Below the pieces are notes generated by a model. It was given only the letters and a program-made list of their open reading frames with translations. It did no database searches and was not told where the DNA came from. 64,000 nucleotides of DNA from Okamejei kenojei (taxonomy: Eukaryota), in assembly GCA_035221665.1 (NCBI GenBank), contig CM069149.1, positions 44,826,001-44,890,000 of the forward strand, written 5' to 3'. Shown here in pieces: positions 497 through 62,240 of the stretch. The translations under genes and the position numbers were made by a program. The first letter of the stretch is position 1. The number at the start of each line of letters is the position of its first letter.

Positions 497-612
497 AATG
501 TGTAGGAAGCATATGGTCTGAAGAAGGGTCTCAACCCGAAACATCACCCATTCCTTCTCTCCAGAGAAGCTGCCTGACCCGCTGAGTTACTCCAGCGTTT
601 TGTGCGTTATGT
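497..612 (+). mobile_element. PLE terminal-repeat insertion with hammerhead motif (518-545)
   Basis: ctgaagaagggtctcaacccgaaacatc followed by the family body. 15-bp TSD acacagaaaagatag at 482-496 and 613-627. Confidence 0.8.
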
Positions 613-2254
613 ACACAGAAAAGATAGGTTAGGGTCATGAAAACCAAAAAATAGGTTGTTTTTTGGATTAGCTGAACTTGAACAGCAATAGAAGCAGCTG
701 TTCTTGGTGTGCAAAATAATTTGGGGTCAGATGCAAAGTACAACTATCAATAGGATATTGACTAAACAGTCATGTTCAGTCTTCTAGATTGTGGCTGAGT
801 AGGGAATGGGATTGGTGCAAAGGAACAAATATCGTGGTGGCAGTTAAAAGGGTAGATTCGGAGTTTCCTCACAATGTGAAACACTACCCAGAACACTACC
901 CACTCGCCAAGGACTGTCAATCCAAAATATGTCAATAAATGATTAACCCATGACCATTGATGTGGATATTGGAACAAATTCTCTTCAGCTGGGAAATTCC
1001 AAGTACTTTGGTTTTGCTCGTTTTTTAATCAATAATAATAGTCACTAGGAAAGCTGTTTAATGACCTATTGGTTGGTTGAGTTTTATGTGTTTTTTTCTG
1101 ATAGTCTGATATAAAATTTCAGTTGACCGAGGGGTGACTGCTCTGCTTCCAGTAATGAGGTCAGTGATTTCCTCAAAGTGCCATTGCAATGAGGCAGCAC
1201 AGGTGCTGGTCCTTGTAAATCGGATCCTTTACTGGGAGATCGATAAAGCCTTTACAGTTAATACACAGATATTCCATCTTATTTCCCATAATCTATCTTA
1301 TGCTGATGGATATTCAATTTCACATTTCCTGGAGTAAGCATATGGGGAAATGTACTTTGAAAGTAACACTACAGTAGTGCACTACTGGAAGACACCAACT
1401 TTGTAGTAGGAAATCTAAACAGAATTATACACTTGGTACTACATTCCTTGAATATCAGATGGAAGCAGGAAGGCAGTATATTTATCCCTATTTTAACCAA
1501 AGGAATACTAGAGTTAATTACAGTGTGCCAACTGTTGCCCCAATTGAGATCATTTAACTCTACTTCCTTTCTTGAAGATGGGAGTTATGATAACAGGCAT
1601 CTAATTAGAAAAATATTTGATTTTGTACTTATCCATTGGACGCATGGCTTATCTCATGTGCAACAGATTACACTTATCCATGGAGGAAATTCATATGGTG
1701 TTTGACAGTTGGCTTGCATTTCTTCTTAAAAACTCCGCCAGTTTTCAATATTGGTTTAGAATCTGAGTTTAAAAAATGCCCATTAACTGTATTGAAACTG
1801 GCATCAACCAAGTTGCAGTTTTTGGTGCCATGCTTTGGAAGCATCTTTTTTATAATTAGCATCTATTGATTTAATGGTCTCATGTAACGGTGCCTTTTAG
1901 TATCTACAAAACAGAAAGTTTTAGAAAATGAATGTATAGCTTTGAAAGCTAAAAATCATCTTGGGCAGGCAGGCTTTTCATGCCAGCTTAATTGTGTTGT
2001 GTCCAATCCTTCCACAGACAGGGCTGAAAAGGAGACAAGATTGCTCTTGTATAAAGCTGGTACATATTCAACAGGCCAAATGGCCTCTTCCTATGCTATA
2101 AGCATTCTGTAATTCAGGAAGCATTTAAAAGAACAAAACACTGTCTGTATCAATAGTTTTCATTTTTAAAAACCATCTTTCGAAACATTACAATCCCTAT
2201 AAAGTTAAAAACTGGTAGAAAAGTTAAATCTATAGCTGAGCTAATATTTTTAAA

Positions 2255-2445
2255 AAGGAGAGGTATTTGAGGCAGGTACGACTACAGCATTTAAAGACAT
2301 TTGCACAGGTGCATGGACAAGAAAGGTTCAGAATGATGTGGGCCAAACGTGAGAAAATGGGTCTATCTTTGATGGAGCATTTTGGTCGGCATGAATGAGT
2401 TGGGCCAAAGGGCCTGTTTCTGCATTGGATTACTCTGACTATGAT
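2255..2445 (+). mobile_element. CR1 3' end fragment
   Basis: gaggcaggtacgactacagcatttaaagaca...gggccaaagggcctgtttctg...ctctgactatg. Confidence 0.75.
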
Positions 2446-4627
2446 TAATGTCCATTTAGGTAGATAAATATCCAATACGTGTGTTCTTTTGATTTTAAAC
2501 CAATGTTGATTGACAAAGTACATTATGTTTGATTACACAGTTTCAATATCAAATTTGAGATAAAATTTGAGTTTGTATAAAATGAATTAAACGTGTGCTC
2601 AAGACAACAGCAAATTTATAAAGAAAGATCAGAAAGATGCACCTGTTGAAAAAAACACATCTTATTCTGGAACAGCTGTTAGATAAATTGAAGGAAGTTA
2701 AGTGAGTTAAATTCAATCAATTAAAAAGATCTACCATGGGTAAACTATGTGGCTATTGTTTTAAACATTTTTAATTTTCTCTCCTCTCCCATTGCTGGCA
2801 ATCTCTGTGCCGTGAACTATCGCTGCCAGGAAATTGAGCAAAGGATCTCCTTCTGGCACTGCACCATGTCTGGGAGAGCAGCCAGAACTGAGTTTTATAT
2901 TTCATCTCTGGCTTCAGCAGCCAGGAATAGAAAGAATGTCAGCTCTTGCTACGAGGAACCCCTGGAGTCACCGGGAGACACAGTTGCCGATGTTTGATGT
3001 GTGCTTTTTTAATCAGGAAATCTAAATTGGGTGATTTTCTTTTTGAAGTTCCTATTTCTATTTCACAAATTGAAATATCCATTTTCTTCAAATGTATTGC
3101 CTCCAATCTGTTACTGATTGATGAGCTGCCCAAGATTGTTGGTTGTCAGTCTGCAAAGCCAAACATTGCCATGAGCTTGTCCCATAATGGGAACTTCTCC
3201 AGGGTGCTGACTCCCCTGTGATAGATCAGGCTCTCCAACCTGATTAAAAGATCCATAATATTGCATTTGCAAATATTCAAAATATATCATAACTTAAACA
3301 TACTATTATAAATATTTAAATTTATTTTAAAATGTTTCACACACACCGTGACATGACTTCAAGGAGAATTGCTACAGTTGAGAAATCATCTGTGTTGGGG
3401 GTCCAGCGTTTACAGGTAAACCCCCACAACTGTCACATACCTTCTGGCATCATCCTTATAATGCTTTTGGGAGTGGTCGTTTTCCTGTGTTAAGGTTTAG
3501 CTTTCAGGAAATATTAGTAAGTCTGACCATTAGATATTCCCTCACTGAAGGGAAGATTGTAGATTGATGTTCGTAAAGTCGTGGTTGCGAAGGCAGGTAC
3601 TTCCACACGACAGTAAATGGAGGACTGAACTATTGTTCAGCTGGTTATTGGGAGCTTGCTTTAACTCTCCATTGGGAGAGGAGCTGCTCAGTTGTTGGTC
3701 TTTACTGTTCTATTGGCAAAGGCAACTGACTCAAGAAAATACTGCAAGTGGAGACGCAACAGTATAAGTTCATAATGTCTGGAACAAATTCCGTTGTTCC
3801 TGAAGAGGTTGTAAGAGGCGTGTGAAAATGAAAATGTCATATTAGAGCAGTGGGGAGAACTCAGTTCAGGTCAGTGGCTAAGATCCATTGCTAGTCCTAC
3901 ATGGAGAGTGTTTTCAGTTGCATATAAATGTTAAATTTCTGATTTGTTACAAATATTGAGCATTGGAATTTGATCAATTCTTGAGGTGCCCTTTTTTCTC
4001 ATCAACATGTAAAATTGATTAAGGGCCTGTGCAAGCTGTATTATCAGGAATCTTTTGTTCACTGAGATTTCTACAATTAGAACTATTTTAAGGGGACTGA
4101 TTTGCTTATTGTCTTCCGGACAAAAAGAATGATTTTGACTCTCCTTGAAATGAACAAAAAAGATGTTATGTTTTCTCTCAAGTCCTAAATTAAAAGAACT
4201 TGATCATCCAGTTGAGTTGTTGCTGGGGCAAAATAAATGACAGAAGCTAACAATACTCCCATTAAAATGAATTGATCCACGGATCATTACTGGACCCTTC
4301 TAATCAGCTCCTACTGGATACTCGTCAATTAAGTCTTGTGATTGAAAACATTTTTGTGACTCAAAATAGAAGGTTGGAGAGTAGTTTTTAAATGTGTAGA
4401 ACATATTCAATTTGTTTTTGTTCGACCAAATATCTCCCTCACAAAATCTGGAAAGCAAGGTTTGTTGGGGATTGTGATTATGATGTTTAATAAATGCTCA
4501 GACCACAATGGCATTGACGTCAAGATCCTTAGATCGAAATATTATGAAAATATATTGATTTAAAGATATGGTTTCCATAAGAAATTACTGGAATTTTACA
4601 GAGACGTTGAATGCTCAACAATTGGAC

Positions 4628-4754
4628 GGTCTGAAGAAGGGTCTCGACCCGAAAGGTCGCCTATCTCCTTCGCTCCTTAGATGCTGCTGCACCCGCTGAG
4701 TTTCTCCAGCCTTTTGTGTACCCTCGATTCTCCAGCATCTGCAGTTCCTTCTTT
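4628..4754 (+). mobile_element. PLE terminal-repeat insertion, young subfamily, hammerhead motif plus 3' tail
   Basis: Begins ggtctgaagaagggtctcgacccgaaaggtc. 11-bp TSD aacaattggac at 4617-4627 and 4755-4765. Confidence 0.85.
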
Positions 4755-4844
4755 AACAATTGGACAGATTGCTTTGTTCAAAATCAACTAGCTGAGAGAA
4801 ATATTTTCCTTTGTTATTCTGGTGGCACAGAAAATAATTGTTGG

Positions 4845-4935
4845 CTCTCCATAGATGCTGCCTCACCCACTGAGTTACTCCAGCATTTTGTGTCTACCTT
4901 TGATTTTACCAGCATCTGCAGTTCTATCTTACACA
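4845..4935 (+). mobile_element. 5'-truncated PLE terminal repeat
   Basis: ctccatagatgctgcctcaccc...ccagcatctgcagttc body and tail; aaataatt on both flanks. Confidence 0.75.
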
Positions 4936-7454
4936 AATAATTTTTGGAGTTAGGCTGTGATTTTTTTATTGATGGAAAAACATTCCGTGCATTCTGCTTC
5001 CATGTGAATGACACATTTAAAAAGAGAGTGGTTTGTAAAATCCTTGAAATAATATATGCAAGTTATGGATAGTTAAATGCCTTCTCTCTCCACCTAGCTA
5101 AATTTTTAACTATCTATCTGCTGCCTGCTTTCGCAGTACCAATTATTTTATTTCTATCTATTATACAAATATAATATATTACAATAGATCACAGCATAAG
5201 CTGTCTTGAATTTAGGGAACAAAGACTTTAAAAAAGAAACGGGGTCAGCTCACAAAAGGCACAGAGGCCCAGATATTCTGATCCAAGATGGGCCTTGCAG
5301 TTTTAGTAATGAATCTTTTACTGCAAACTTCATTTACACCTGAGGGCCAGACGACAAGTGTGAGAGACAAATGTTTGTTGTTCCAAACCTTGATTGAAAA
5401 TGTGCCCAGCCAGGATTAAAACTCCAGGTCAGGTTCAGGTGAGTTGGAATAGCCAGCAGCATAGTCTCTGTGCTGTGGCTATTTGCTGGAGGCAGAAGAG
5501 GGTAAAGAGATTAGGCAAGTATTATAAGGAAGAAACTGTGCTGAGCCTTGAATTAGGTCCAACTGGAGGTGGAATCACTCCTTTGCCTAGTGTATGGCTA
5601 TGACTGGACCAGTGCCCTGAGTTATGAGAGAGCTAATAGGTTTCATAGTGAGGGATTCGAGTGGGATTAAAGCCACCAAATATCGATAGTAGTATGAGGA
5701 GGTTTCAAGATTGAGCCATTTGTTGGAATTGGTGATAGGGAGATTAGAAATTGGCTCTGAGGATCGAGAGAGATTGAAACACTGGATGGTTGGGACCTGG
5801 TTTCACAGAAGGGGGACCAAAATCAATAAAGGGTTTACATTGTGGGGCTACCAGTCCAGATTTGTGCAGGCTATACCTAGTTGTCTGGTAGTGTTAAACA
5901 GCGGTACCTTCCAAGGTAACTTGGTCCAAGATTCCACCCACTTGCTGCAAGAAAATAGCACTGCAAGGAGAAAGATGGCCTTATGTGCGCCCTGATGCTG
6001 CAATCACAATGGCACAATGGTTACTCACACATGGTAGTTCTCAGTCAATTATCCAGTAGGACACATAACAGAAACCGACATTGTCACGATGGAGAAAACA
6101 GTTTTCAGTCACGTGGTGCTGATAAAACAGCTTTATGTGATTTAATTTCTGGTCAAGTATGTCTTTAGTGTCTTACTACATCAATCAATTGCTTTATATT
6201 CTCCTTACCCATTGTGAAATCATACAGTGTAACTTGAATTATGTTGTTTCTCCAAAAGATGATCTAATACTCTTTTTTTTTACTTCTCTGATTGTCCATA
6301 TTTTTCTTTTCTGCTCCTCACCTTCCAAACAGCCCCAGCAGCATCTGCCATGGAGCTGGTGAAGGGGTGGTGGAAGCGTTACTACTAAAATACTACCGAG
6401 CACAAACTGGTGACCTGTGTATCACCATAACACCCTATTTGTTGGCTTCTGGAAGCCTGTTAACTGCTAATGATGCCCGGACATGAAAAGCCGGCCCAGG
6501 GAGTGGCGCAGTTTTTTGCCATGATGTCTGTCAGCTTTTTCCTTTTCATATGGATGCAGTTAAGTGGGCCTCTTTGGAATGTAATTGGAGGGTGGTGGGG
6601 GTGGGAGGAAGACCGCCTAGGGCCATCCCCGAGGTACACCAGCAAAGCTGGACTCCAACATCCCAGGCACATTATTTATATGACCAGGAGCATGTGGCTT
6701 TGAGAATGAACATCAAAGTTTGTCTAGTACATCATAATTTACATCGGTGACAACTAAACCGGATAAAGGTCAGGAGGTGGCTGACTAACTGCTTTTTTTT
6801 TGAAGTATTGTTCCCCTCACAGATATTCCAAAAATCCTAATTGTTTCTTATTGAAACAAAGTGTATAACCTTGCCCTCAACATGAAAACAAATTACCCTG
6901 GGTAACATACAGATACAATGCACTAAAGATACAGCAGTGTCCACTGTTGAGTGAGAGGATACAGGTCCATTCCCTCCATTCTTCATGCAACCTCTTAATC
7001 TCAGCCATGCTGCTGTGATGGCGAGTGACCACGGTTATCTGGGAGGCAGGGTGTTGGTAAATTAAAAGAAAGAAAAATATTCCCTTTCTTAGATTTTAGT
7101 TTCGAATTGCACTCTACAACTTCCCCAATGTCTTTGTTGGAGAGGCAGCGGCTAATTTATCTGTCATTCATTCCCCTGTTTAAACTTCAAGCCAATATTT
7201 GCATTCGAGGGTTGCACGTGAAAAATAGCATGTTGGGTACGATACCAGCTGCCATTCCACACTTGTCAGTCAATAGTCTAACAGAATACAACATTTTAAG
7301 CGTGTAGAACCTATTTCCACACTGAAGTGCCCTTTTCAAAGTAAAAAATGCCAACCTGAATGGCGACAACTATCCTCTGCTCAACTAATCCTTCTCTCCT
7401 TCCTGCAGCCCCTTTAACAGTTAATCACCCCATTTTCTGCCAACACTTCTTTTT

Positions 7455-7770: not shown

Positions 7771-8233
7771 AGTTTTAAAATGCTCCACTGTTTACAAAAA
7801 TGAAATAAGATTTTATGTGTGCTCCCGGGACTTCATCTTTCACATGCACTCCAGTGCTTCCAAATTATTGCTTCCATGCTCGTCAAAGACTCTGTTTCCT
7901 GACCACTGGCTCTGTCTCCCTCACTAGCTACTGCCTGAGGCACAGATTACTTACAAATGGTTTGGTCTTTTTCGCTTTGAACTGAGATTCCAACCCTTAT
8001 CCTCTCATTGGGACTGTCTTGATCCACCTCCAAACCAGTGCACAGCCAGACTCAGCTCATCTGTTGCTGATAGTTGTGTTACTACCAGACACAAGTATTC
8101 TAAAGCTCTCTTGGCTATCTTCCTGCATTCCAAAATCTATAATCCCATCCAAAGCTCTACTAACTGTATCCTAAATAGCATCAAGATTGTTCACCCAGAT
8201 TGGCATCATATCATCCTAAACCTTGTATTTACA

Positions 8234-8323
8234 GGGTACACAAAAAGCTGGAGAAACTCAGCGGGTGCAGCAGCATCTAAGGAGCGAAGGAGATAGGCGA
8301 CGTTTCGGGTCGAGACCCTTCTT
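8234..8323 (-). mobile_element. PLE terminal repeat, tail-less, truncated inside the hammerhead
   Basis: Reverse copy of the 4628 subfamily. TSD ccttg(t/a)atttaca at 8221-8233 and 8324-8336. Confidence 0.8.
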
Positions 8324-8496
8324 CCTTGAATTTACATCTGTCCATTGGTCATTGCATTTGAAAGGCCAATATGTCAGATACCAAGTTCAGGATTTCCTTC
8401 CCAAAACCCTCATACCCATCTTCTTGCCTATCACCAAAGCTTTTGATGCTGGACCTAATTTCTTCTTCTGGGAGCCGTTGTCAAATTTTGTCTGAT

Positions 8497-8803
8497 GATA
8501 GCGCAGTAACAGGCCCTTCGGCCCACCGAGTTCGCACCGACTAGTGATCCCCGCACATTGACATTATCCGACACATGCTAGGGACAATTCTTTTACATTT
8601 ATACGAGCCAAATAACCTACAAACCTGTATGTCTTTGGAGTGTGGGAGGAAACCGAAAATCACAGAGAAGCCGAAAATCCACGCGGTCACGGGGAGAACG
8701 TACAAACTGTACAGACTGCACCCGTAGTCGGGATCGAACCTGGGTCTCTGGCACTGTAAGCGCTGCACGGCAGCAACTCTACCGCTGTGTCACCGTGCCG
8801 CCC
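8497..8803 (-). mobile_element. HE1-type SINE, full length
   Basis: Minus strand starts gggcggcacggtg...ggtagagttgctgcc, B box ggttcgatccc, V-domain gtttgtacgttctccccgtgacc, tail gggccgaagggcctgtt. Confidence 0.9.
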
Positions 8804-8842
8804 GCTTTGTCTCTAAACTAAACTGTCTTATAATTCACATCT

Positions 8843-9090
8843 AGCTGGAGTAACTCAGTGGGACAGGGAGCATCTCTGGAGAGAAGGAATGGGTGACGTT
8901 TCGGGTCGAGACCCTTCTTCAGACTGGTTAAGGATAAGGGAAACGAGAGATATAGGCGATGATGTAGAGAAATAAATAACAGAAACGTCACCCATTCCTT
9001 CCCTCCAGAGATGCTGCCTGTCCGCTGAGTTTCTCCTGCTTTTTGTGTCTATCTTCGGTTTAAACCATCATCTGCAGTTCCTACCTACAC
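8843..9090. mobile_element. PLE inverted terminal-repeat pair
   Basis: Minus arm 8843-8980 includes the intact hammerhead; plus arm 8981-9090 carries the tail. TSD ataa(t/c)tcacat at 8830-8840 and 9091-9101. Confidence 0.8.
8891..8927 (-). ncRNA. Minimal type I hammerhead ribozyme motif with intact core, inside a PLE terminal repeat
   Basis: Minus strand reads ccagt-CTGAAGA-A-GGGTC-TC-GACCC-GAAA-CG-TC-accc: CUGANGA box, stem II hairpin, GAAA box, palindromic ACGU stem III and GUC cleavage triplet. Confidence 0.7.
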
Positions 9091-9851
9091 ATAACTCACA
9101 TTGTTGTGGTTGTTATAAAGAGAGGAGCAAAAAGGGGAATTCTGCCTCCCCACAAACCAGAATACATCTCAGAGAAGTAGGTAAAATAAATGCCTTGACA
9201 TCTCAGGTGGGGCATTACAGCTGGGCGAGTGCATTCTTTCTGCTAATGACATTAGATTTTTGAACAGAGAATAAAATTGATCTCCCTTTGGAGAAAAGAA
9301 ATTAAATTTCATTTTGAGGGACAGTGTAATTTTCTAACAACATAAAAGCAGAAACTAGGAACTGCATATGCTATAGAGTTTACTGTAGAGTTGCTTAGCA
9401 CTACTAACATAAAAGCAGGTTTTGTTGTATCAATCAAACTTTTCTTGTCACATTTATGATAGTTCCTGGATCTTGTTTGTTCAGCTGGAAATTCTCCCTA
9501 ATACCATTCTAACTAGTCTCTACGTGAAAGGGCATGGTGACAACCTTCACAGCCTCACTTGCCTGTAGACAACGGCATATCAAAGTCAGCAAATGATACA
9601 GAACTTTGCAAAGCAAGGGTAATGATTATTACCATTAAAACCTATTGAATTACCAGGTACAGAGAACTTGTGGGAAGAAGTGTAATTTGATGCCCTTAGA
9701 AAAGACTGATTTTGAAAAGCAATCTTCAATGAAAAATCACAATTATGTGTGAATGGCTCTTGGTATCCATTAACAAAATGTGGCACAGACTTTTAAAAAT
9801 GCAAACGAAGCTCAAAAAGAATAAATACAAAAGTACCCAATTGAGTACTAC

Positions 9852-9967
9852 AGGTAGATAAAAACGTCACCCATTCCTTCGCTCCATAGATGCTGCCTCA
9901 CCCGCCGGGTTTCTCCAGCATTTTCATCTACCTTCGATTTTTCCAGCATCTGCAGTTCCTTCTTAAA
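9852..9967 (+). mobile_element. PLE terminal repeat with short inverted stub
   Basis: aggtagataaaa stub, then acgtcacccattcc... body and tail. 14-bp TSD caattgagtactac at 9838-9851 and 9968-9981. Confidence 0.85.
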
Positions 9968-11849: not shown

Positions 11850-11859
11850 TGTGCACATA

Positions 11860-18729: not shown

Positions 18730-18935
18730 ATACACGGAACTGCGAATGCTGGAATCTTGTGCAAAAAATAAAGTGCTGGAGTAACTCAGTGGGTCAGGTA
18801 GCATCTCTGGAGAACACGGATAGGCGATATTTTGGGTCTCTCTGAACAATGGTCCCGACCCAAAACGTCACCTATCCATTTTCTCCAGAGATGCTGCCTG
18901 ACCCGCTGAGTTACTCGAGCATTTTGTTTTTGCTC
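18730..18935. mobile_element. Older PLE inverted terminal-repeat pair
   Basis: Arms gctggagtaactcagtgggtcaggtagcatctctggagaa and ttctccagagatgctgcctgacccgctgagttactc; degenerate hammerhead near 18842. Confidence 0.75.
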
Positions 18936-20117
18936 AAGATATATAAAGAGCTGTCAGAATTGCTAAACAATTGGTTCAGCCTGAGAAAAGGCAATGGAAG
19001 GAGTCTAAAGTGAGGGCACAGTTGGAGTCGGCCTATTCCTCTGTGAGAGGAAATAACAGATCATTTAAGACTGGATGGCAGCTCAGTCATTTTACAGCAC
19101 AGAGGGGTTGGAAGGGTGGAGAGACATTAGCGTGGTCAGTGGGCATGTGGAACTCACTTGTGTCGGCAGATAATGTTCTTAAGAGGCTGCATGCAGATGA
19201 GGAAGGGGAAGAAATTACAGATAAATTGTTTCAATCATGCTTTTGTTTAAAGAAAAGCTATGAATCAAAACCAGGAAAGTCGGCAAAAGTTTCTAATTTG
19301 CTTTTAAAAAGACGACAGCAAACCTATCAAATCACTTCAGATACTTTGTGAAAATCCTAACTGTGATAGCATGCTCTCCACTCCAAACTGAACATATAAT
19401 ACAGAAGTACGCTTTGTAATATAGTAAAGGCATAAAAAAATTGCAAATGTTGAGAACATGATTAAACTTGCATATAGACTAACATTTCCTGTATTAGAGA
19501 TGCCTCTAAGCTCACCAGACACCAGAGCCTATGAATTTGTGATGGCCTCGAATTTTGTGCAGCTTCCCAGATGTATCACTGTCTGCTAGACAGACTGAAG
19601 TTGGCAGGCCACGGTTCCAGTTTTTCAGACTGCCAAATCCCAAGGTACTTCAGCACAGGTTGAATAAATATTTTTTGGAGCTAGCGAAGAGGAAAATATA
19701 TTTTTAAATATTACAAATCATTCTTTAGTTTTTGATTAGTGTGGGTAATCTTTCGAAATGAAGTTTCTCAACAAAAGGTAAAATGACACCCAGTGAGCGC
19801 TGGTATAGTCAGTTCTTTACATAGATTGGGAGGAGGAGAAAGTACAGTAATAATAATATTAGGACACTTACTTGGATGGGATTGCTAAATCAACAAGGAT
19901 AATAAAACTGGTTTCAGAATCCCTTAAATAATATGCTAGCTGGGACAAGTTCTTGAGAACATGAGTTCTTGAACAAGCATTTATAGAGATTTTGTGTTGT
20001 TAATTAAACTTTTTTATTTAACTGTGATTGCCAACTTTGTGGATGTCATCATGATTGATTATTGAAAGTTGTGAAGGAAACTATGTTACCTTCAAATACT
20101 GGAGACTGTAAGTTGAT

Positions 20118-20256
20118 GGTACACAAAAAGCTGGAGAAACTCAGCGGGTGCAGCAGCATCTAAGGAGCTCCTTAGATGCTGCTGCACCCGCTGAGTTTCT
20201 CCAGCTTTTTGTGTACCCTCGATTCTCCAGCATCTGCAGTTCCTTCTTTAAAAAAA
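20118..20256. mobile_element. PLE fold-back insertion: perfect 100-bp palindrome plus tail
   Basis: 20118-20167 is the exact reverse complement of 20168-20217. 16-bp TSD agactgtaagttgatg at 20103-20118 and 20257-20272. Confidence 0.9.
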
Positions 20257-24380: not shown

Positions 24381-24789
24381 GACTTTTCTCAAACGTTTCT
24401 CTGAACTTTAGAACGTGATCCTCTAATCTTTACCCATAGCTCATCCCTGTTGTATTTGGCATTATTTTTGTTATTATTCTTTCCAAATCCATTCCAATAT
24501 ACATATGTCCTTTCACTAGCCTAGTGACCTAAATTAAACACAGTATTCCAGATGTGGACTCAACAGCGCATTGCAACATCTTAAAATAACCTCCGACTGT
24601 ATTCTGTTGGTTAAGACACAATTAAGTGTCCCAATTTTAAGTAATAAATACAGAAAATACTGGATATATTCAGCATGTCCAGCAGCCTCTGTGGAGAGAG
24701 AAACAATTGACCTTCAAATGAACGATTATCTTTGATCTGAGACTGTTATATTTTCCCAGATGCTGTTGAACCGACAGAATATTTTCACT

Positions 24790-25750: not shown

Positions 25751-25903
25751 AGTAGACCAAAATGCCGGAGAAACTCAGCGGGTGAGGCAGCATCTATGGA
25801 GCGAAGGAATATTCCTTCGCTCCATAGATGCTACCTCACCCACTGAGATTCTCCGGCATTTTGGTCTACCTTCGATTTTTCCAGCATCTGCAGTTCTTTC
25901 TTA
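25751..25903. mobile_element. PLE fold-back insertion: 118-bp palindrome plus tail
   Basis: Arms 25752-25810 and 25811-25869 with 3 mismatches. 17-bp TSD aacaggttgttcatgat at 25734-25750 and 25904-25920. Confidence 0.9.
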
Positions 25904-29377: not shown

Positions 29378-29440
29378 GAAAAAGTGCTGGAGGAACAGCT
29401 GGTCAGGCAGCATCTCTGGAGGACATGGATAGGTGGCACT
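29378..29440 (-). mobile_element. Degenerate PLE terminal-repeat fragment
   Basis: aaagtgctggaggaacagctggtcaggcagcatctctggag; ttgagaagt repeated on both flanks. Confidence 0.6.
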
Positions 29441-33124: not shown

Positions 33125-33320
33125 AAAGCACAAACTCACAGGTCAGACAGCATCTGTGGAGAAAATGGACAGGCGAATGGGTTTTGGGTTGAATAACGGT
33201 CCTGACCCGAAATGTCATCTGTCCATTCATTGCCTCCAAGATGCTTCCTGACCCGCTGAGTACCTCCAGTACTTTGTGTTATGCTCGAGATTCCAGCATC
33301 TGTAATCCATTATTTCTCCT
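33125..33320. mobile_element. Degenerate PLE inverted terminal-repeat pair
   Basis: cagcatctgtggagaaaatggacagg...gacccgaaatgtcatctgtccatt...gatgcttcctgacccgctgagtacctccag. Confidence 0.7.
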
Positions 33321-34452
33321 GGTGATGTATCTACTTTTTAACCCCAATAATATCCCCTTATTATATTCTCCCTAATTAAATTTAAGTCATTCAATACTTC
33401 AAAATCCCCCTCCTTAATTACAGTATCAGTATTGCCCCCATAGTTTGTAAAGATAGACACAACTACTCATGATGAATCATGCCCAAAACTTCCACCTGAC
33501 AACACAGATTAGATTTCAGCCTCTAAGAGGCCCAGTCTTTCTTTAACTTTGCTCTTACTCTTCATATACTGCTGGGAAAAAAAAGGATTTCCTTTATTTT
33601 CACATTTCAATGCTTTCATGCCCTCTTGTTGCTTTCCCAGTGAGGTCCTTACTTTGACGTCTGCACTCTCACTGCACTGCTAGTCTTTCTGCAGTATATT
33701 TAGATCTTGCTATCTGATATAAGTTCCTTTTTTTTTCCCTAACTGTCCCTGTACGCACTTTGACATTCGGGGGTTCTCAAATTGGGAATCCCATTTATTT
33801 TTAGGGAACCTATTTGCTCTGAACCCTCACTGTCACCTTGAATGCCTCACAGTGCTCTGGCATTAATTTACCTTTGAGCAGCTGTTTCCAATTTTTGTTT
33901 GCTAAATTATATCTCAGCCAAGTTAAGCTTCCCTTCCCCCAATTCCGAACTTTACCCTGATCTATCTTTGGACCTTTCTGTGACCATGCTAAATTTAGCT
34001 AAATATAATCACCAACACCAAACTGCTGTCCCAGTTACCTCTTCCACCGCTCAAATTCATTCTTGAAAACCTGCCACTCATGTTGGTCTCATTACATATA
34101 TGCTGAAACAGTCCCCATGAATTCATTGCCATGCAAACCTTTTAAACTGATTTTATACCAGTTAATGTTGAAATGTGTCCATCTATTTGCCCTCTACAGG
34201 GTCGATAAAAACATACCCGCATATTATGATAATGGAGTTATACTCATTTCCGTTCCTCTGTGGGATCCTTCCAGCGAGTGATCTCTCACACGACTTTTTA
34301 AGCAATGCTATTGACCACCCACTCCCCTCTATTTTTTTGTTTTCCCTACCTTGGACTGAAAAACATATACTAGTAATATTGATCTGCCATCCACATCCTT
34401 TAAGCTGTGTGGCGATATCTGCTACATTCTCAAATTTCCAAATGTATAGCTG

Positions 34453-34785
34453 TGTCAGAGTGAGGCTCCGCACAAATTGGAGGAACAGCCCCTCATATTT
34501 CGCTTGATGCACCCCAATGGTATGAACGTTGACTTCTCTAACTTCAGGTCGCCCTTGCTTTCTCCCTCCATCCCCTCCCCCTTCCCAGTTCTCCCACTAG
34601 TCTTACAGCCTCCGCGTATATTCTTTCCTTGTCCCGCCCCCTCCCCTGACATCAGTCTGAAGAAGGGTCTCGACTCGAGACGTGGCCAGTTCCTTCTCTC
34701 CATTGATGCTGCCTCACCCGCTGAGTGACTCCAGCATTTTGTGTCTACCTTCGATTTACGAGCATCTGCAGTTCTTTCTTAAACA
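34453..34785 (+). mobile_element. 3' end of a Penelope-like retroelement: GIY-YIG endonuclease C-terminus, pyrimidine-rich UTR, hammerhead-type terminal repeat and tail
   Basis: 34453-34548 translates to CQSEAPHKLEEQPLIFRLMHPNGMNVDFSNFR, resembling the E..(W/L)I..L....P.G(L/M)N motif that ends PLE GIY-YIG domains. ctgaagaagggtctcgac follows at 34657, then the family body. Confidence 0.8.
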
Positions 34786-35199
34786 TATCACCTCATCGGC
34801 CTTATTCTCACAATGACTTGCATTCATGTACACACTTTTAAACATTGCCGATCTCATCTCTGTCTATTTTCTGGTCTCTGTTTCCTCTGTCTTACAAACT
34901 TGTTTACCGTTTGTCTGTCTGCCATTTCTAGTGTTTTACCTCAGCCTTCTACATGTACAATCTGTTTCTCACTCCCTTACCAGGCTGGTTTTAACTCTTG
35001 CCAGGAACCCAAGCAGAAATCCTCATCATTCTCTTTATTTGTCCAATCCATTTGGCTTTCAAAGGTCCCACATCCCCCAAAGACGTCTCAGTGCTGCTGT
35101 GATCCGAATGACTTTGTGTATCATCTCTAACCGCTTGATTGCCTCTTTTTTCTGTTGATACAATGTTATGGCACTGGGGGTTTCTGGTAATGACAAACA

Positions 35200-35288
35200 T
35201 TAAGAAGGAACTGCAGATGCTGGAAAATCGAAGGTAGACAAAAATGCTGGAATCCTCACCCGCTGAATTTCTCCAGCATTTTTGTCTA
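35200..35288 (-). mobile_element. PLE tail plus short fold-back
   Basis: aagaaggaactgcagatgctggaaaatcgaaggtagacaaaaatgctgg then ccagcatttttgtcta; flanks aacatt(a/g)aga. Confidence 0.75.
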
Positions 35289-37471: not shown

Positions 37472-37589
37472 TAAGGGAAATTCCTAATTTGGAAGCTTGG
37501 AATTGGATCACTGGTACTGTTTCAATAAGTTCAATAGAAATTGTTCACACTTGCAGCCATAAACTAATCTACATGGGCAGTGGATTTGG

Positions 37590-39410: not shown

Positions 39411-40944
39411 TACCCTCTAACTCTACTTTGAGGTCTTTGTTTTCAACCTGCTACCTAACTCCCTAAATTATCTTTGCAGGACCTCATCTGTCTTCCTAGC
39501 CATGACCTCTGGCAGCTCATGTTCCCCCTAAATAATGTCATCTCCCCGCACCGAGATGACCTTCACTGAGGCCCTGGGGAGGCAACTCACCTTACTGGAG
39601 TCTCACTTGTGGCCCAGGACCGCCTGTCTCTGTCTCTGACTATAGAGTCTCCCATCACTAGTGCTGACATTGTCTTTGGCCTGCCCAGCTTGACACCAGA
39701 GCCAGGCATGTTGCCAGTGATCTGGCTGCTGCTATTTTCCTCTGAGAGTTCATCCCCCAATAGGATCTAAACTGGAGTGTTTGCTTGAGAGGGAGATAGC
39801 AGTCACCCAACAACCTGTGATGTGACCGCTCCCTGAAACTATTTGTTGAGAATCATCGAGACCAGCAGACAATTGTTCCTGCACTTATGTCCCAAATGAT
39901 AAATATATTGTTTATTTGTTTTAATGAAGGAAAAGTTATGCTCTTGTGCAGAACAGCATTATGGTTGTCTTTAGTGCTATTTGACGAAATTATAAATTTC
40001 AGTAGGTTTTCAACGAAACATTTAAATGAAAAAGTATTAACTTCACTTTTTGCTGCATGAAGTGTCAGGTTGAGAGAAACAGTGTCCCATTGTCTACAGT
40101 TAATCATGATGTGAGAATTGTTTATACAGCTGCTGTAAGTGAATGAAACGCTAATTATTAGCTGTTGAGTGGAAAATGCCACCAACTGTTTAAGGGTTTT
40201 TGTATGTGATCTGATAATATATAACATCTTGTTGTCTGATTTTTATCCAAAATTCTCTGCCCTCAATTTCTCAAATAAATAATGTTTTGAGTTAATTTCT
40301 ATATAATTGTGAGTGAAAAGAAAGGTACTCATTTTGTTTGCTGGCCTTGTTCCCTCTGGCACTGTAGATGTGAATTTGCTCATTGCATTTTACAGTCCTT
40401 AATTGGTATTTTATCATAATGTTGTTTTAGTAAGATTTTATTTTTATGGTTGCTCTAATTTCTATTTCAGAGTGAAAGAGCTCCAGAATAGAATATGTAT
40501 ACTTATTTATCTATTAATGAAATATATATTTGTTCAACAAAAAACACATTCCTCCAGGACTTAATTCCAAGTAGTTGCGATGATGAATTGGAAATGTAGG
40601 GATTAGTTCTTGCAGACATAGAAATCTATCGGTAAGTCAAGCTCCATATACTGTGCCTCACTTCCCAAACCTAAGGCTCCCCTTTTGTTGGGCTGCATGG
40701 GATAACTCTCCTACTCCCCCCTTCCCAATGGGCTTTGAATCCCAGTCCTGCCTCTGTGTAAAGCCCCAGGACCTCATTCCTAACTGCCAAATACTTCCAA
40801 TAGGGTTGAACTTTCAAAGGAGGAGCAAGGACATTTTTAGGTGATGTTCTCAGGGATCACTGCAGGCACCAGCACTATTCCTGAAGTACTTTAATGGCTC
40901 GGACTGGGGTGCACAATGAGCAGATGATACAATATCTTGGGGAA

Positions 40945-41078
40945 ACAAGGAACCACAGATGTTGGTTTCCCAAGGTCAGTCTGAAGAAGGGTCCTGACCC
41001 ATAATGTCACCTCTCCATGATTCTCCAGGGATGCTACCGGACCTGCTGAATTACTCCAGCATTTTGTGTCTTTCCTTG
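40945..41078 (+). mobile_element. Degenerate PLE terminal repeat with decayed hammerhead
   Basis: cagtctgaagaagggtcctgacccataatgtcacc...ttactccagcattttgtgtc. Confidence 0.7.
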
Positions 41079-41699: not shown

Positions 41700-41757
41700 A
41701 TTTATCCTTTTCTCCAGAGATGCTGCCTGGTCTGCTGAGTTACTCCAGCATTTAGTG
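41700..41757 (+). mobile_element. PLE terminal-repeat fragment
   Basis: ttctccagagatgctgcctggtctgctgagttactccagcattt between duplicated tgtcatttatt flanks. Confidence 0.7.
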
Positions 41758-44921: not shown

Positions 44922-45195
44922 AAGCTGGAGTAACTCAGCGGGACAGGCAACATCACTGGAGAGAAGGACATTTTTTTTTCAAAATATACTTAATTCGAGA
45001 AATAAATATATACAATCTACGTTCCTTACAAAACGCCATCCGACATTCTCGGAGGCTATACATACATTGTATGTCAATAGTCAATAGTCTATTTCTTGTG
45101 ATGGAGACTGTGAGATCAAGAAAGGGGAAGGAGGTGTCGGAGATGGTCCGAGTTAATTTGAGTGCAGGATGAAAATTAGTGGTGAAGTTGATAAC
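44922..45195 (-). mobile_element. Deleted PLE copy: reverse-transcriptase fragment joined to terminal repeat, interrupted by a poly(A)-tailed insertion (about 44970-45086)
   Basis: 45087-45192 on the minus strand translates to INFTTNFHPALKLTRTISDTSFPFLDLTVSITRNR, resembling the PLE RT HP.LKFT...(L/F)PFLD region. Repeat arm at 44922-44967; taactatct on both flanks. Confidence 0.7.
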
Positions 45196-48562: not shown

Positions 48563-48872
48563 GGTAGACAAAAATGCTGGAGAAACCCAGCGGGTGAGGC
48601 AGCATCTGTGGAGCGAAGGAATAGGTGACGATTGAATAATCAGCCATGATCATATTGAATGGCGGTGCAGGCTCGTAGGGCCGAATGGCCTACTCCTGCA
48701 CCTATTTTCTATGTTTCTATGTTTCTATGAGACCCTTCTTCAGATTGAAGAAGGGTCTCGACCCGAAACGTCACCTATTCCTTCGCTTCACGGATGCTGC
48801 CTCACTCGCTGAGTTTCTCCAGCATTTTTGTCTACCTGCGAATTTTCCAGCATCTGCAGTTCTTTCTTAAAT
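48563..48872. mobile_element. PLE fold-back pair with head-to-head hammerhead cores; left arm interrupted by a CR1 3' tail (48631-48728)
   Basis: Centre reads gagacccttcttcag-a-ttgaagaagggtctc. 16-bp TSD gaat(t/c)attgactcaaa at 48547-48562 and 48873-48888. Confidence 0.85.
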
Positions 48873-55191: not shown

Positions 55192-55275
55192 GGGTCTCGG
55201 CCCGAAACGTCGCCTATCTCCTTCGCTCCTTAGATGCTGCAGCACCCGCTGAGTTTCTCCAGCTTTTTGTGTACC
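55192..55275 (+). mobile_element. Young tail-less PLE terminal repeat in the putative 3' UTR
   Basis: gggtctcggcccgaaacgtcgcctatctcc...gtgtacc. TSD ctagactt at 55184-55191 and 55276-55283. Confidence 0.8.
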
Positions 55276-55569
55276 CTAGACTTAGTCTCTGATGTTTTTG
55301 TTAACTGATCAAAATAAATTATAACATTGCTCTAAAATATGCCTATATGTCTCACAAATCCGTGTGCTAGATTTGCATTAATAATTGACTGCTAAATGAG
55401 GACTTATTTTTAAACAGTTCTAGCCACATAATAATATAAAATTCTGTAAATTGAGAAAAAATATTTCTTATTTGATCTAATTCCTGCTCAGCATATATCC
55501 ATGAACATTCTTGGGGAAAGGTGGTGCACAGTTATATACAGTTATTCAATGTGTCTAGAATTAGTATGT

Positions 55570-57214: not shown

Positions 57215-57328
57215 TTCTGATGAAAGGTCGTTGACAAAAAAGGTTGCTTCGCCCACAGATGCCAACTAACCAACTGAGTATCTCCAACGTTTTCTGATTT
57301 TATTTCATGTTTCCAACGTCTGGTGTTT
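57215..57328 (+). mobile_element. Old diverged PLE-type terminal repeat
   Basis: ctgatgaaaggtc...cccacagatgccaactaaccaactgagtatctccaacgttttctg. Confidence 0.5.
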
Positions 57329-57696: not shown

Positions 57697-57995
57697 AGGA
57701 CAGCACTGTGGCACAGCTGGTAGAACTGCTGCATTACACCACCAGAGACCCGGGTTGGATCCTGACTTCAAGTGCTGTCTGTGTGGAGTTTGCACATTCT
57801 CCCCGTGACCATGTGGTTTTCTTCCGGGTGCTCTGGATTTCTCCCACATCCCAAAGACATGTGGGTTTCTAGGTCGATTGGCCTCTGTAAATTGCCCCTA
57901 GTGCGTAAAGAGGGGTGGATGATAAAGTGGGATAACATCAAACTAATGGACTCGATGAGCCAAAGGACCTGTTTCCAGGTTGTGTCTTTCAACAA
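57697..57995 (+). mobile_element. HE1-type SINE
   Basis: gcactgtggcacagctggtaga...gacccgggttggatcctgac...gtgtggagtttgcacattctccccgtgacc. Confidence 0.85.
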
Positions 57996-58399: not shown

Positions 58400-58470
58400 C
58401 AGGAAACTGCAGATGCAAACCACAAAGTGCTGGAGGAACTCAACAGCTCAGACACCATCTGCGGTGGGAA
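58400..58470 (-). mobile_element. Degenerate PLE terminal-repeat fragment
   Basis: aactgcagatgc...caaagtgctggaggaactcaacagctcagacaccatctg. Confidence 0.55.
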
Positions 58471-60432
58471 TGTAAAAGCAGTGTTTTTGACAGCTTATTA
58501 ATCTTTTAAATCAATTTCTATCAGTTAAATGTGTGTTCTACATTAATATTTTAAACATCTATTTTACCAGCAGAAAAGGCTTTTGAAACTTATGTTGGTC
58601 TCTGTGGTGGGGAGTAGTTTTGGGAAATTTTAGCCAGCTCTGGAATCTGAGAGTTTTATGTTTGTTTTGTAGGGGTGTATTGAGAAAGAGTACTTACTTG
58701 CAGTTGGGGAGTTCAGCCTGGGTGCATGAAACACCATCAATTTAAAATTGGCATAAAGAGTTTAGGAGAAATGGCCTTTTGGCAGAAATTTGTCCGACTC
58801 ACATCTTTTAAGGATAGCTGAATTTGAGTCCAAGTGGCCACTGTGTGATTTTATTTCATCCCTTGATCATAAGTTTAGGTCTGTGCAATAACTGTGCTAC
58901 TGTAGAAGGCTATTGAACCGTGATCTGAACGCTTCATCACAATTAAATATCACGAGCCAACAGGGGTCAATTCATCTCTTAGCTTTGTCAAAATCCCAAG
59001 TTATTCCTGAATTCATGGCCATTAGCTGTATATTCACCCAGGAAGTATTTGAAGCAAGTTTAAGCTTTTTTAATAGAGGAGCTTTGACACAGTTTTTCAT
59101 TTCTAGTTTATTTTCCAACAAATTGCCTTTACAATATTTTCAGTCCCGTTGTTTTATGGAATAATTACCTCAAATAGATAGGACGTGTTTAAGGATTTGT
59201 CATGTTCCCATACAGTCAAGAGAACATCTGTGGCAAGAATAATTATACAACATGGGGTTTCTAGACCAAACACTGTACTCAAATATTGTGCAACTAGAAT
59301 CTGGTCTACAAATTGTCTGAATTTACTCTTGTACTTTAGAGAACAAGTATATGCATTTTTTTCTCAATACCTCACCATAATTATTCTCTGCAGGAATCTA
59401 AGACTGCTGAGAGCAAAAAAAATTTACTGAACCAGTCAGGACACTGTGAACTCCACAGTCACAAGCTGTGTTACCGATCGTAATCAACATATATGGGCAA
59501 AGACCGTACCATAATGATGCATTATAAAATTATGATCCAAGTGGTTAGGGCAGAGTAATCTCTGATTCTCAGACACTGAATGTAGTCTCTCCCACTGACA
59601 TATTTAGGCAAAATAAAATCAAGCTGAGACATAGAAAATTGATTATTCTTTAATGATGTGGAATTTTTTGATTGATGACCACAAGAATGTTTGAGATACC
59701 CATAAAAGCCCCACCAGAATGTACATTGCTCAATTTGCAACCGCATGTGTTCAACGATGACAAATGTCTACTGGTAAAATGACAATATTCTTGACTACAT
59801 TTGATATTCTTTATGATTTATATGTACGTGACCACATAATAAATAGAATATTCAATGGTTGAGTCAAACGTCTTTAATCCACTCTTTCTGTTAACAAAGT
59901 AATTGCCTAGTCAATAAACAGCAAGCTACAGTCTGTTGTTTCACTAACAGTTTGGCCAAATGTAGTACTTATTTCGAAATTAGGTCCCATATAAATACTG
60001 GTGTAGAGTTACAGTTAAGGGCCAAATGGTAATCTGAATTCACGCACATCAGGTTCCCAAAATGAAGCTCTTGTTCAGGGTTCTGCTAAACACTTCTGCA
60101 TAATCACAAACATAAAACCTTCTCTGAACCATGCAATCAGGATGCATAATACAGCATAATAGTGATTTTTCCTTTCATTTAGAATATATTTATTCATATA
60201 ATTAAGAGAGCTCTTGCAGTTTTATTAATACAGCTGTAAGAGGTTTAACACAATATGTTAGCATTTTAGTGTTATTTTAGTAATTTAATTAGCAGTTTAA
60301 TCCATCACATATATAACCTTGTTAATTACTAGACATTAATAAATTATATAAAATATTTATTAGTTTCATTATTTTAAACTGGTTTTCTACTAAATGATGT
60401 TTTATTATTTAAAAAAAAAGATATTTACTCTA

Positions 60433-60490: not shown

Positions 60491-60691
60491 AACCAGTCTG
60501 CAATGTGACTGGGCTGTTTCCAGTACATTATTTAAAAATTAAAGATTACAAAATCTTAATTTACACTCAATATATTTTGTGCTTAAAATTCTTCAGTCTT
60601 TTATACCAGATCACCCAATTTCTAGCAAAACTGAAGTTGGGTAACTAGTATAACTAGTGGATATATTTTGCCATTGAAAATTAGTAGGAAA

Positions 60692-60905
60692 GAAAGGTAG
60701 ACACAAAATGCTGGAGTAACTCAGCGGGACACACAGCATCTCTGGAGAGAAGAAATGGGTGACATTTCGAGTGGATGACAATGAATGGGTGACCCGAAAC
60801 GTCACCCATTCCTTCTCTCCAGAGATGCTGCCTGTCCCGCTGAGTTACTCCAGCATTTTGTGTCTACCTTCGATTTAAGCCAGCATCTGCAGTTCTTTCC
60901 TACAC
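60692..60905. mobile_element. PLE inverted terminal-repeat pair plus tail
   Basis: Arms about 60694-60765 and 60790-60872. TSD agtaggaaa at 60683-60691 and 60906-60914. Confidence 0.85.
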
Positions 60906-61193
60906 AGTAGGAAATAAAGTTTCCATTTGTATTTGAAATGTCAGAATCGTGAAACTAGACATCTTCACTTAATTTCTGTTTTATGATTTTTTTTTCGCTC
61001 TCATCATAGATACTCACAAAGTACCAATGCAAGACTCACTGTCCTTTTTAAATCAGTCCGATTTTAAACTCGATGCGCTTTCTGCAAAATCGCTCATTGT
61101 GAAACATGTTCCATTAAAACAAATTGAATTTATAATCTGGTAATATAATTTTTTTATTTGATGTTTCAGTGCTCTGATTACAAAATAGTTCTA

Positions 61194-61197
<4 letters not shown>

Positions 61198-61271: not shown

Positions 61272-61276
<5 letters not shown>

Positions 61277-61369
61277 GTTGTAGTAAAGAAAGGATACATA
61301 TATATATTTATTAATAACTATATATAGATATATATCCTTTCTTCTGTTTTATAATCGTTTCTATTATAC

Positions 61370-61407
61370 AATATAGAAATAGAAACAATTGTTTCTATTT
61401 CTATATT
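61370..61407. repeat. Perfect 38-bp AT-rich palindrome
   Basis: aatatagaaatagaaacaa|ttgtttctatttctatatt. Confidence 0.9.
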
Positions 61408-61425
61408 TTTACATCATATTCACGT

Positions 61426-61753
61426 CTAGTTTAGAGATACAGCATGGAAATGGACCCTTCGGACCAGCAAGTCCACGTTAACCATCAGTCACACGGTCTA
61501 TTTATCCCACTTTTGCATCCATTCCCTACGCATATTACAGAGACCAATTAACCTACAGTATTACAGAGACCAATTAACCTACATACCTGCACATCCTTTG
61601 TATGAAGGGGGAAACCTTGAGCATCTGGAGGAAACTCGCACAATCACAGGTAGAACGTGTAAACTCCAGACAGAGAGCAGCTGAGGTTAGGATTGAACCA
61701 AGGTCTCTGGCGCTGTAAGGCGTAGCTCCACAAGCTGCGCCACTGTGCCACCT
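61426..61753 (-). mobile_element. HE1-type SINE with internal tandem duplication
   Basis: SINE motifs present; tattacagagaccaattaacctaca occurs twice at about 61533-61583. Confidence 0.8.
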
Positions 61754-61954
61754 CTCAGGGTGACAATTGTTTTAAAATGGGGTTAGAGAATTATGTTGTG
61801 CATTTCAAATCTGAAGATCACAACAACAGTAGTAACATTATAAGTTGCTTTGAAGGCAGCACATAATTTATCCACAGCAGGGAACCAGAACGAGAAAGTG
61901 GGATGAGTGGTCAATTAAGCTATTTTTTAAAAATGTTTTGCTAACCTCGAAAAA

Positions 61955-62240
61955 AAAAGACACAAAGTGTTAGAAAAACTCAGCGGGTCAGGTAGCTGGA
62001 CAATGGGTTAGGGCCCTTCTTCAGACTGATTGTGGTGGATGAGGTGAGGAGAAAGTGGGAAGAGAGGTGAGGGCAGGGCACAATCCGGTCAATGATAGTG
62101 AGGTGGTGGGGGGTTGATAGGAAGATGGTCGGACGAATGCCAGAAATGAAAGACAGAAGATGAGAGACAAAAGGATTGAAATGTTGCAATTTGTGACACC
62201 AGAAGATGGAAGGGGACGGAGGAGGGGAGAAATAGGTGTA
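61955..62240 (-). mobile_element. Degenerate PLE 3' end (terminal repeat plus purine-rich flank)
   Basis: gacacaaagtgttagaaaaactcagcgggtcagg...cccttcttcagactgat followed by a G/A-rich stretch, as in the 34550-34650 region reversed. Confidence 0.65.

Follow-up and report, generated by a model that had tools for sequence, protein, structure and literature searches.

The question raised by this 64,000-nucleotide stretch of Okamejei kenojei (contig CM069149.1, positions 44,826,001 to 44,890,000, forward strand; hereafter the window) is whether the short repeats dispersed along it, some of which carry a motif resembling a minimal hammerhead ribozyme, are working ribozymes, a retrozyme-like unit that spreads independently, or remnants of Penelope-like elements (PLEs). 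An original prediction, made from the letters of the window, had claimed about 20 copies with a hammerhead as their 5' part, many of them with target-site duplications (TSDs) on either side, and had left the choice between truncated PLEs and a retrozyme-like unit open. As detailed below, the repeats look like a known kind of sequence, namely the leftover terminal ends of Penelope elements, fossil-like rather than working ribozymes.

Repeat segments were searched for with an nhmmer profile built from four window copies and refined in one round, at a threshold of E<0.001. This retrieved 31 segments, the best match in the reversed window used as decoy having an E value of 1.1, and merging of head-to-head neighbours yielded 23 insertion sites between 497 and about 62240, so that the claimed copy number was borne out. 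Inserts between duplications measure 50-310 bp; the copy at 34447, around which no target duplication was found, measures 332 bp. Flanking direct repeats scoring at least 9 occur at 12 of the 23 sites, compared with 3% of 300 random sites. Among the twelve, 33148/33294 was rejected as a TSD, being an internal repeat, and clear TSDs of 10-18 bp are found at 11 sites, in agreement with the claim that many copies have them; three more plausible TSDs (8830/9091, 35196/35288 and 55184/55276) score 7-8, inside the null range. The 14 curated TSDs (189 bases) contain 70% A+T as compared with 60% for the window (P=0.002), in line with the preference for AT described for the endonuclease of an anole PLE (PMC11167929). 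The repeat family is therefore genuine, as are its density and its TSDs, and extrapolation of this one 64-kb window would give 230,000-540,000 sites per Gb.

The architecture of the insertions was then considered. Ten of the 23 sites show a head-to-head inverted structure, eight with two arms and two with inverted tail fragments, a feature that is absent from the original prediction. The 3' ends are bimodal, with 15 of the 31 segments ending at consensus positions 73-101 and 16 at 116-124 or beyond, and the optional tail of ~35 nt is present on exactly one arm at all eight two-armed sites (0.5^8 = 0.004), a pattern shared by the two sites with tail-only inverted fragments. Most junctions of the two-armed sites are palindromic or show microhomology. 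Both inverted arms and an optional tail at one end are given as features of PLEs in PMC3846280 and PMC8557442. Arms are 86-100% similar and of one subfamily in seven of the eight pairs, the remaining old pair (33191/33190, 65% alike) being uninformative; separate template RNAs for the two arms of one inversion, also considered, are thus unsupported. According to the hand-curated ends, 16 of the 23 sites continue 5' past the cleavage site and none stops at it; therefore, the template was uncleaved RNA. Uncleaved RNA is likewise the template of the anole element in vitro, and its ribozyme mutants insert normally (PMC11167929).

A coding relic was found directly upstream of the terminal repeat in the longest copy, where positions 34450-34551 look like the end of a GIY-YIG endonuclease. 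Its peptide, compared with 1.84 billion representatives, gave two protein matches, P0001, which was set aside as a repetitive peptide, and P0002, which is 68% identical over 34 aa and whose nearest clusters with a family in the protein atlas carry GIY-YIG (score 0.89, 15% of members; a lead only). No match was found among solved structures. A Neptune clade of endonuclease-containing (EN+) PLEs was reportedly recognised by Arkhipova in 2006. By eye, the piece and P0002, with the pattern E..I.RL....P.G.N before the stop of the piece, resemble Neptune rather than Penelope or Poseidon sequences (PMC8557442, Fig S2), which is suggestive of a Neptune affinity for this end. The structural marks of insertion, that is, inverted arms and a tail on one arm, are nonetheless stronger evidence of a PLE than the endonuclease piece, and all three support the predicted PLE origin.

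A possible splice donor, a weak match, was also observed at 34546-34552, over the position of the endonuclease stop codon; paired with the acceptor-like sequence at 34655, this donor would delimit a possible candidate intron of ~105 nt in the terminal repeat. A spliceosomal intron in the pseudo-long terminal repeat (pLTR) that persists in copies is among the traits of EN+ PLEs. The pyrimidine tract and CAG precede the motif in all three long upstream arms, and 43 of the 2507 CAG sites of the window are equally pyrimidine-rich. Spliced copies, with the endonuclease end joined straight to the ribozyme, were not found among the eight sites whose 5' ends cluster at the ribozyme edge (see below). 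In Drosophila virilis, an intron ends just before the ribozyme (PMC4209133, PMC2377424).

Regarding the hammerhead itself, the claim that it forms the 5' part of about 20 copies did not hold, the motif from C3 to C17 being physically spanned by only 10 of the 31 segments, which represent 10 of the 23 sites, with two further segments cut inside it. Among these ten motifs, one is intact, three carry 1-2 changes in 29 nt, and six have at least three changes or a deletion. In the intact one (8922-8895, minus strand), stem II comprises 4 bp with a tetraloop, stem III is palindromic and loopless (A-C-G-U at 15.1-16.1), and helix I has 2 bp (8924-8923 with 8894-8893), while the cut is predicted between 8895 and 8894, 3' of GUC as originally proposed. 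The loopless ACGU stem III and the extra base between 9 and 10.1 agree with the minimal type I consensus of PMC4209133. A strict descriptor modelled on this minimal hammerhead of Cervera and de la Pena gave one match in the window versus none in 100 dinucleotide shuffles; bare core strings gave six matches versus a shuffled mean of 3.9, not above chance. One such set of core strings, lacking a pairable stem II, lies outside the family at 15795-15832 (plus strand), within chance expectation. Rfam hammerhead models, the scan proposed in the original prediction, produced no match at gathering scores in the whole window and none at E<=10 on 8800-9000, where five unrelated chance matches appeared at that level. 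Across 11 copies, stem II, with G10.1-C11.1, comprises 4 pairs with 91% of cells paired, a value falling to 15-43% when the whole structure is slid by 1-3 columns.

Conservation of the motif was evaluated from non-CpG changes of each copy relative to its own subfamily consensus, for 24 of the 31 segments in four subfamilies, the other seven being excluded as unassigned or old. Private changes affect 8/119 core, 5/83 stem II and 80/1204 downstream body positions (Fisher P=1.0), and the core in the copies is decaying at the neutral rate. On the contrary, the four subfamily consensuses disagree at just one of 19 core and stem II positions (the CpG at G12), versus 2/4 in the loop and 14/57 downstream, the probability of at most one such difference being about 0.03 (calculated by hand). 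Neutral decay in copies together with near-identical subfamily cores indicates that constraint acted only on active parents, for whose retention of the motif the evidence is modest. The picture of many live ribozymes is not sustained, with one intact motif in 23 sites and a neutrally decaying core. Scaling of that one motif in 64 kb gives about 16,000 per Gb (95% range, 400-87,000), so that the tens of thousands of ribozyme-type repeats suggested for this genome are possible, but loosely bounded and derived from one window.

Minimal hammerheads of PLEs are described as not cleaving as monomers and cleaving poorly as dimers (PMC4209133); dimer cleavage is attributed to Lunse et al. as cited in PMC6765202, and the anole PLE hammerhead cleaves only with the PLE protein (PMC11167929). 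Because of this poor or protein-dependent cleavage, the refutation by cleavage assay put forward in the original prediction is a weak test, and a negative protein-free assay would not refute membership of the window family. Its motif is probably a dimer-type, protein-assisted ribozyme in the active parent that is dead on arrival or decaying neutrally in the copies.

The surroundings of the intact copy were also explored. In naked RNA of 8860-8960, the core is predicted to pair with a downstream CCUUC, stem II and helix I having near-zero probability, while in its real context the inverted arm 8982-9090 is predicted to form pairs over a stretch that takes in GAAA, stem III and the cut site (-122 kcal/mol, z -9.7); this arm is therefore predicted to lock the intact motif. 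In most subfamilies, the 5' core (consensus 1-13) is imperfectly complementary to positions 30-51 downstream of the cut (e.g. 8923-8873, minus strand), which is predicted to form an off-state helix, although RNAalifold did not recover it as a common structure. Most repeat sites lie inside a plus-strand host gene with exons at 26368-26559 and 52772-52909 and canonical splice flanks, the latter being the last one, which terminates in a stop and codes for an FIP domain (Pfam PF09457, E 6e-12); the former appears to be the exon before it. We take the gene to be of ERC1/ELKS type, at the end of its long isoform. The intact motif is antisense to it, and the seven sense arms that span the core within the gene are all damaged. 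Purging of intact sense ribozymes from the host intron is not claimed, zero intact of seven being expected often enough under neutral decay.

Considering these observations together, the repeats are with a probability of roughly 0.7 the 5'-truncated, often inverted copies of the pLTR of a Neptune-like Penelope element, and the truncation alternative of the original prediction is the one supported. Several observations weigh against this reading. The endonuclease link consists of a single 34-aa piece; neither this piece nor P0002 has a Pfam match, searches for homologues found no full-length relative and nothing other than P0002, and neither a reverse transcriptase (RT) nor a full PLE open reading frame (ORF) occurs among the 63 ORFs of at least 90 aa in the window. 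Just 3 of the 23 sites reach well upstream of the hammerhead. Downstream of a shared ATG, the length differences between subfamilies are not multiples of three, in contrast to the coding ends of pLTRs described in PMC11167929 and PMC3846280. RNAalifold and pair counting revealed no two-sided stem II covariation among the 11 closely related copies, with little master-level variation. Finally, plain truncation does not predict the distribution of the 5' ends, which were curated by hand: among the 11 sites reaching the ribozyme 5' edge (position +4), eight stop between -4 and +4 (7-8 within 9 nt of the edge, depending on curation), for which P is about 1e-5 uncorrected with a background rate taken from the other ends, and from 0.001 to not significant after correction when one uncertain end is moved, the oldest copy is dropped or a higher background rate is used.

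This cluster is one ground for an alternative in which most short copies are not truncated but represent complete run-off products made on a short template. The RNA would start at the initiator-like YCAGTCT of the ribozyme 5' edge, and an RT setting out from the internal start sites in the 5' pLTR would reach the RNA end after 90-130 nt; such short masters could spread in trans as a pLTR-derived short interspersed nuclear element (pLTR-SINE). All four arms that extend upstream show YCAG/TCTGA at the edge (slash), which can be read as a splice acceptor, an initiator or a micro-palindrome favouring fold-back. In agreement with run-off, none of the four sites of young subfamily A (98-100% alike) reaches upstream of position 0, the non-triplet length differences fit non-coding masters, and copies 516 and 4629, from different subfamilies, begin with an extra G pair as from cap copying. 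These G pairs can, however, also be explained by TSD microhomology and an inverted tail, and the cluster itself weakens with curation and background rate. Moreover, the CAG-T-CTG micro-palindrome centred on position 1 could attract fold-back junctions, the initiator pattern is expected once per 80 nt by chance, the start site of D. virilis Penelope is placed 46 nt upstream of the intron and not at the ribozyme (PMC2377424), and 12 of the 23 sites end further 3', so that truncation is common anyway. Run-off is regarded as unlikely, though it stands as a lead. In its more specific form, which we hold to be rather doubtful, the short copies would be two-nick, two-start insertions of a very short RNA starting at the ribozyme 5' edge; in detail, and with equal doubt, a PLE protein dimer would extend each nick from a different internal start, with run-off at 90-130 nt. 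This would explain the 5' cluster, the tail on one arm and the keeping of the motif even though cleavage is not needed for insertion. If true, the family would be a ribozyme-headed pLTR-SINE with its own master lineages and some 10^5 sites per Gb, and pairing of two template RNAs, instead of chiefly their cleavage, could be the role of the palindromic stem III.

The remaining explanations are far less probable. An independent retrozyme, whose tandem hammerhead units self-cleave, circularise and are reverse-transcribed into the genome, would share with the family a type I hammerhead, TSDs and small size, and vertebrate retrozymes are described as derived from pLTRs and present in one chondrichthyan genome (bioRxiv 10.64898/2026.07.22.740005). 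Similarly, non-LTR retrozymes (PMC7229834 and the same preprint) are short, non-coding, pLTR-related repeats, but they form head-to-tail arrays with canonical hammerheads and circle expression, while the window family has a minimal motif and neither array nor fixed unit: no head-to-tail array appears among the 24 rows of a tandem-repeat scan, none of the 31 segments begins at the cleavage site (positions 29-31), inverted arms and tails are marks of PLE insertion, and one copy runs on into the endonuclease. Membership thus fails, since retrozymes are tandem units and none was seen in the window, and this branch of the original prediction is considered very improbable. That the hammerhead likeness is due to chance, or is a relic non-catalytic even in the parent, is harder still to credit. 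The missing Rfam matches and covariation, the competing helix predicted to bury the core in naked RNA and the 2-bp helix I would fit it, but the last occurs also in D. virilis (PMC4209133), the full descriptor finds nothing in 100 shuffles, subfamily changes avoid core and stem, and both the tested anole motif (PMC11167929) and fish motifs (PMC4209133, Fig S3) are laid out in the same way. Equally hard to credit is retention of some copies by the host as intronic ribozymes that cut or regulate pre-mRNA. Most sites do lie in a plus-strand gene, and intronic hammerheads are known in amniotes (PMC7229834); however, every sense arm is damaged, core decay is neutral, the intact motif is antisense and expected from folding to pair with its inverted arm, and its nearby same-strand dimer partner is only a truncated copy 600 bp away.

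Under the preferred reading of truncated pLTR copies, insertion may be envisaged as target-primed reverse transcription in five steps. An active PLE would be transcribed, and RNA left uncut by the ribozyme, as the read-through indicates, would be bound by the PLE protein (by comparison with PMC11167929). A GIY-YIG endonuclease would then nick both strands of AT-rich DNA 10-18 bp apart, the distance recorded in the TSDs. Reverse transcription would begin inside the RNA at either of two sites about 35 nt apart, producing the tailed and tail-less 3' ends observed, a cause proposed from the anole element. Synthesis would mostly halt within 50-130 nt and, with both nicks extended, one per start site, the short complementary DNAs would be joined head to head at a micro-palindrome, giving the inverted insertions with a tail on one arm only. 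The hammerhead, owing to its position about 60-90 nt 5' of the first start site, would be copied as a passenger at 10 of the 23 sites. In this scheme, we infer the enzyme, the priming from both nicks and the protein-assisted dimer cleavage in the parent.

Related systems provide a frame for this proposal. Minimal hammerheads in metazoan PLE terminal repeats were described by Cervera and de la Pena in 2014 (PMC4209133), and share with the window motif CUGANGA, an extra base, a G-C closing pair of stem II, GAAA, palindromic 15.2-16.2 and NUH, as well as a short helix I, a U-rich upstream region, opposite-strand pairs and a distribution mostly as dispersed single motifs of truncated PLEs; stem II has 4 bp here versus 5-8 bp in most of those listed, and helix I has 2 bp. 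Poseidon_Ac from Anolis carolinensis (Frangieh et al. 2024, PMC11167929) presents the same motif layout ending in GAAA-CG-UC, two internal RT starts that define a tail, cutting and extension of both strands, AT-rich targets, uncleaved template and, by our own mapping on that source, a tail end about 120-130 nt 3' of the ribozyme. It differs in belonging to the Poseidon clade with an ORF from stem II, whereas the window motif lacks an ATG and the endonuclease end looks Neptune-like, and in that its cleavage was assayed, while the window family is known from sequence alone. Neptune EN+ PLEs (PMC8557442, Fig S2) also carry a C-terminal GIY-YIG with the Neptune-type motif followed by a pLTR, heavy 5' truncation, an inverted 5'-truncated copy and a 30-40 bp tail at one end; on the contrary, the window sites show no microsatellite targeting, RT or linker, and the clade call for them is based on 34 residues compared by eye. 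EN+ PLEs are further characterised by a telomerase-like RT in a single ORF and by partial tandems, and the Neptune clade by its RT phylogeny and a Cys linker between RT and endonuclease.

Coordinates of the repeat insertions and of other features are collected in the table.

Table. Features of the window (a point in the strand column marks inverted insertions; all rows up to 61957..62240 concern the hammerhead-bearing repeat family or its longest copy).
Position	Strand	Feature	Target-site duplication
497..612	+	Tail-less; hammerhead with 2 changes, preceded by a probable inverted tail fragment	482-496 / 613-627
4628..4752	+	Young subfamily A; hammerhead with one stem III change, tail	4615-4627 / 4753-4765
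4845..4934	+	Begins 3' of hammerhead, with tail	4832-4844 / 4935-4947
8234..8324	-	Tail-less copy of subfamily A, cut at G5 and so lacking C3 and U4	8221-8233 / 8324-8336
8841..9090	.	Inverted, with intact motif; tail-less minus arm about 8965-8841, tailed plus arm 8982-9090	Probable, 8830-8840 / 9091-9101 (score 8, within null range)
8895..8922	-	The single intact hammerhead of minimal type I, by descriptor (C3-A9, extra A, GAAA, C17)	
9852..9967	+	Begins at GAAA, with tail	9838-9851 / 9968-9981
18734..18941	.	Inverted; tailed minus arm, tail-less plus arm from 18841 with decayed hammerhead	None clear
20116..20256	.	Inverted, subfamily A, no hammerhead; palindromic junction 20167-20168, plus-arm tail	20103-20115 / 20257-20269
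24648..24711	-	Old diverged segment without hammerhead	
25751..25903	.	Inverted, no hammerhead; junction 25810, plus-arm tail	25734-25750 / 25904-25920 (17 bp)
29378..29440	-	Short, no hammerhead, no tail	29366-29377 / 29441-29452
33132..33311	.	Old, inverted; plus arm with decayed hammerhead and tail	Not found
34450..34551	+	Probable C-terminal end of PLE GIY-YIG endonuclease (Neptune-like), about 33-34 codons, two-codon deletion	
34552..34655	+	Pyrimidine-rich spacer, 104 bp, ending in CAG just before hammerhead; splice-acceptor-like, initiator-like	
34656..34786	+	Longest copy; dead hammerhead (3 changes), 3' body, tail	
35206..35287	.	Very short, inverted, no hammerhead, minus-arm tail	Possible, 35196-35205 / 35288-35297
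40940..41075	+	Inverted tail fragment, then tail-less arm with decayed hammerhead	
41703..41752	+	50-bp insertion, no hammerhead	41685-41702 / 41753-41770
44923..44970	-	Short segment, no hammerhead	None
48563..48872	.	Inverted, junction at hammerhead 5' edge; tailed plus arm without C3 and helix I	48547-48562 / 48873-48888
55192..55275	+	Subfamily A, from stem II on (no CUGANGA), tail-less	Possible, 55184-55193 / 55276-55285
57216..57327	+	Oldest copy spanning hammerhead, heavily decayed (63% identity to profile consensus)	
58403..58476	-	Old segment, partial tail, no hammerhead	
60697..60905	.	Inverted, both arms begin inside stem II, plus-arm tail	60683-60696 / 60906-60919
61957..62240	-	About 200 bp pyrimidine-rich upstream and internally deleted hammerhead; upstream limit uncertain	
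8484-8800		~300-bp SINE-like family copy	
10275-10714		~300-bp SINE-like family copy	
11551-11850		~300-bp SINE-like family copy	
17234-17560		~300-bp SINE-like family copy	
24790-25290		~300-bp SINE-like family copy	
39237-39414		~300-bp SINE-like family copy	
52378-52690		~300-bp SINE-like family copy	
57700-57990		~300-bp SINE-like family copy	
61418-61750		~300-bp SINE-like family copy	

In the minus arm of the insertion at 48563..48872, stem II and GAAA are replaced by ~98 bp of the 3' end of another repeat (48633-48730), without a TSD of its own, either by a template switch between two retroelements or by a later insertion with deletion. Other elements were also observed in the window. 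A 3' fragment of about 1.1 kb from a long interspersed nuclear element (LINE), which we take to be CR1/L2-like, lies at 46805-47960 (plus strand) and includes an RT piece (PF00078, E 3e-10), one stop, an open stretch of 263 codons and a short tandem tail, with similar pieces at 23499-24390 (minus strand). The second abundant family, SINE-like and ~300 bp long (D4, D8, D9, D12, D16, D18), has several copies that are nested or interrupted by a LINE tail, and is possibly the HE1/V-SINE of sharks and rays. The neighbouring SINE and CR1 tails would agree with the elasmobranch host assumed in the original prediction. A GC-rich segment of ~750 bp at 38229-38990, between a short tandem (TCATGGAA) and an A-rich end, has long open frames in both orientations and resembles the terminus of a further mobile element. 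An element of about 500 bp at 36979-37475 resembles a miniature inverted-repeat transposable element (MITE), its terminal inverted repeats being imperfect and its interior containing short CGAC-rich repeats, and a different MITE-like segment spans about 50400-51440.

Dispersed minimal hammerheads of truncated PLEs have been known since 2014 in fish, coelacanth, frog and reptiles, with genome counts of about 4,000 in coelacanth and about 9,000 in Xenopus, and cartilaginous fish are absent from Table S1 and Fig S3 of that source (PMC4209133); a Penelope-like expansion is described in whale shark introns (10.1101/443036). The literature searched, with subscription journals, Dfam and Repbase outside its scope, described neither the window family nor a PLE hammerhead from sharks or rays as a ribozyme. 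The finding gives no sign that the genome holds a large stock of active ribozymes. It adds a probable cartilaginous-fish member to the PLE hammerheads, together with a dense natural sample of PLE insertion junctions (23 sites in 64 kb). If this density holds genome-wide, hundreds of thousands of junctions would be available for a purely computational test of the RNA start, the formation of inverted arms and the use, if any, of the ribozyme.

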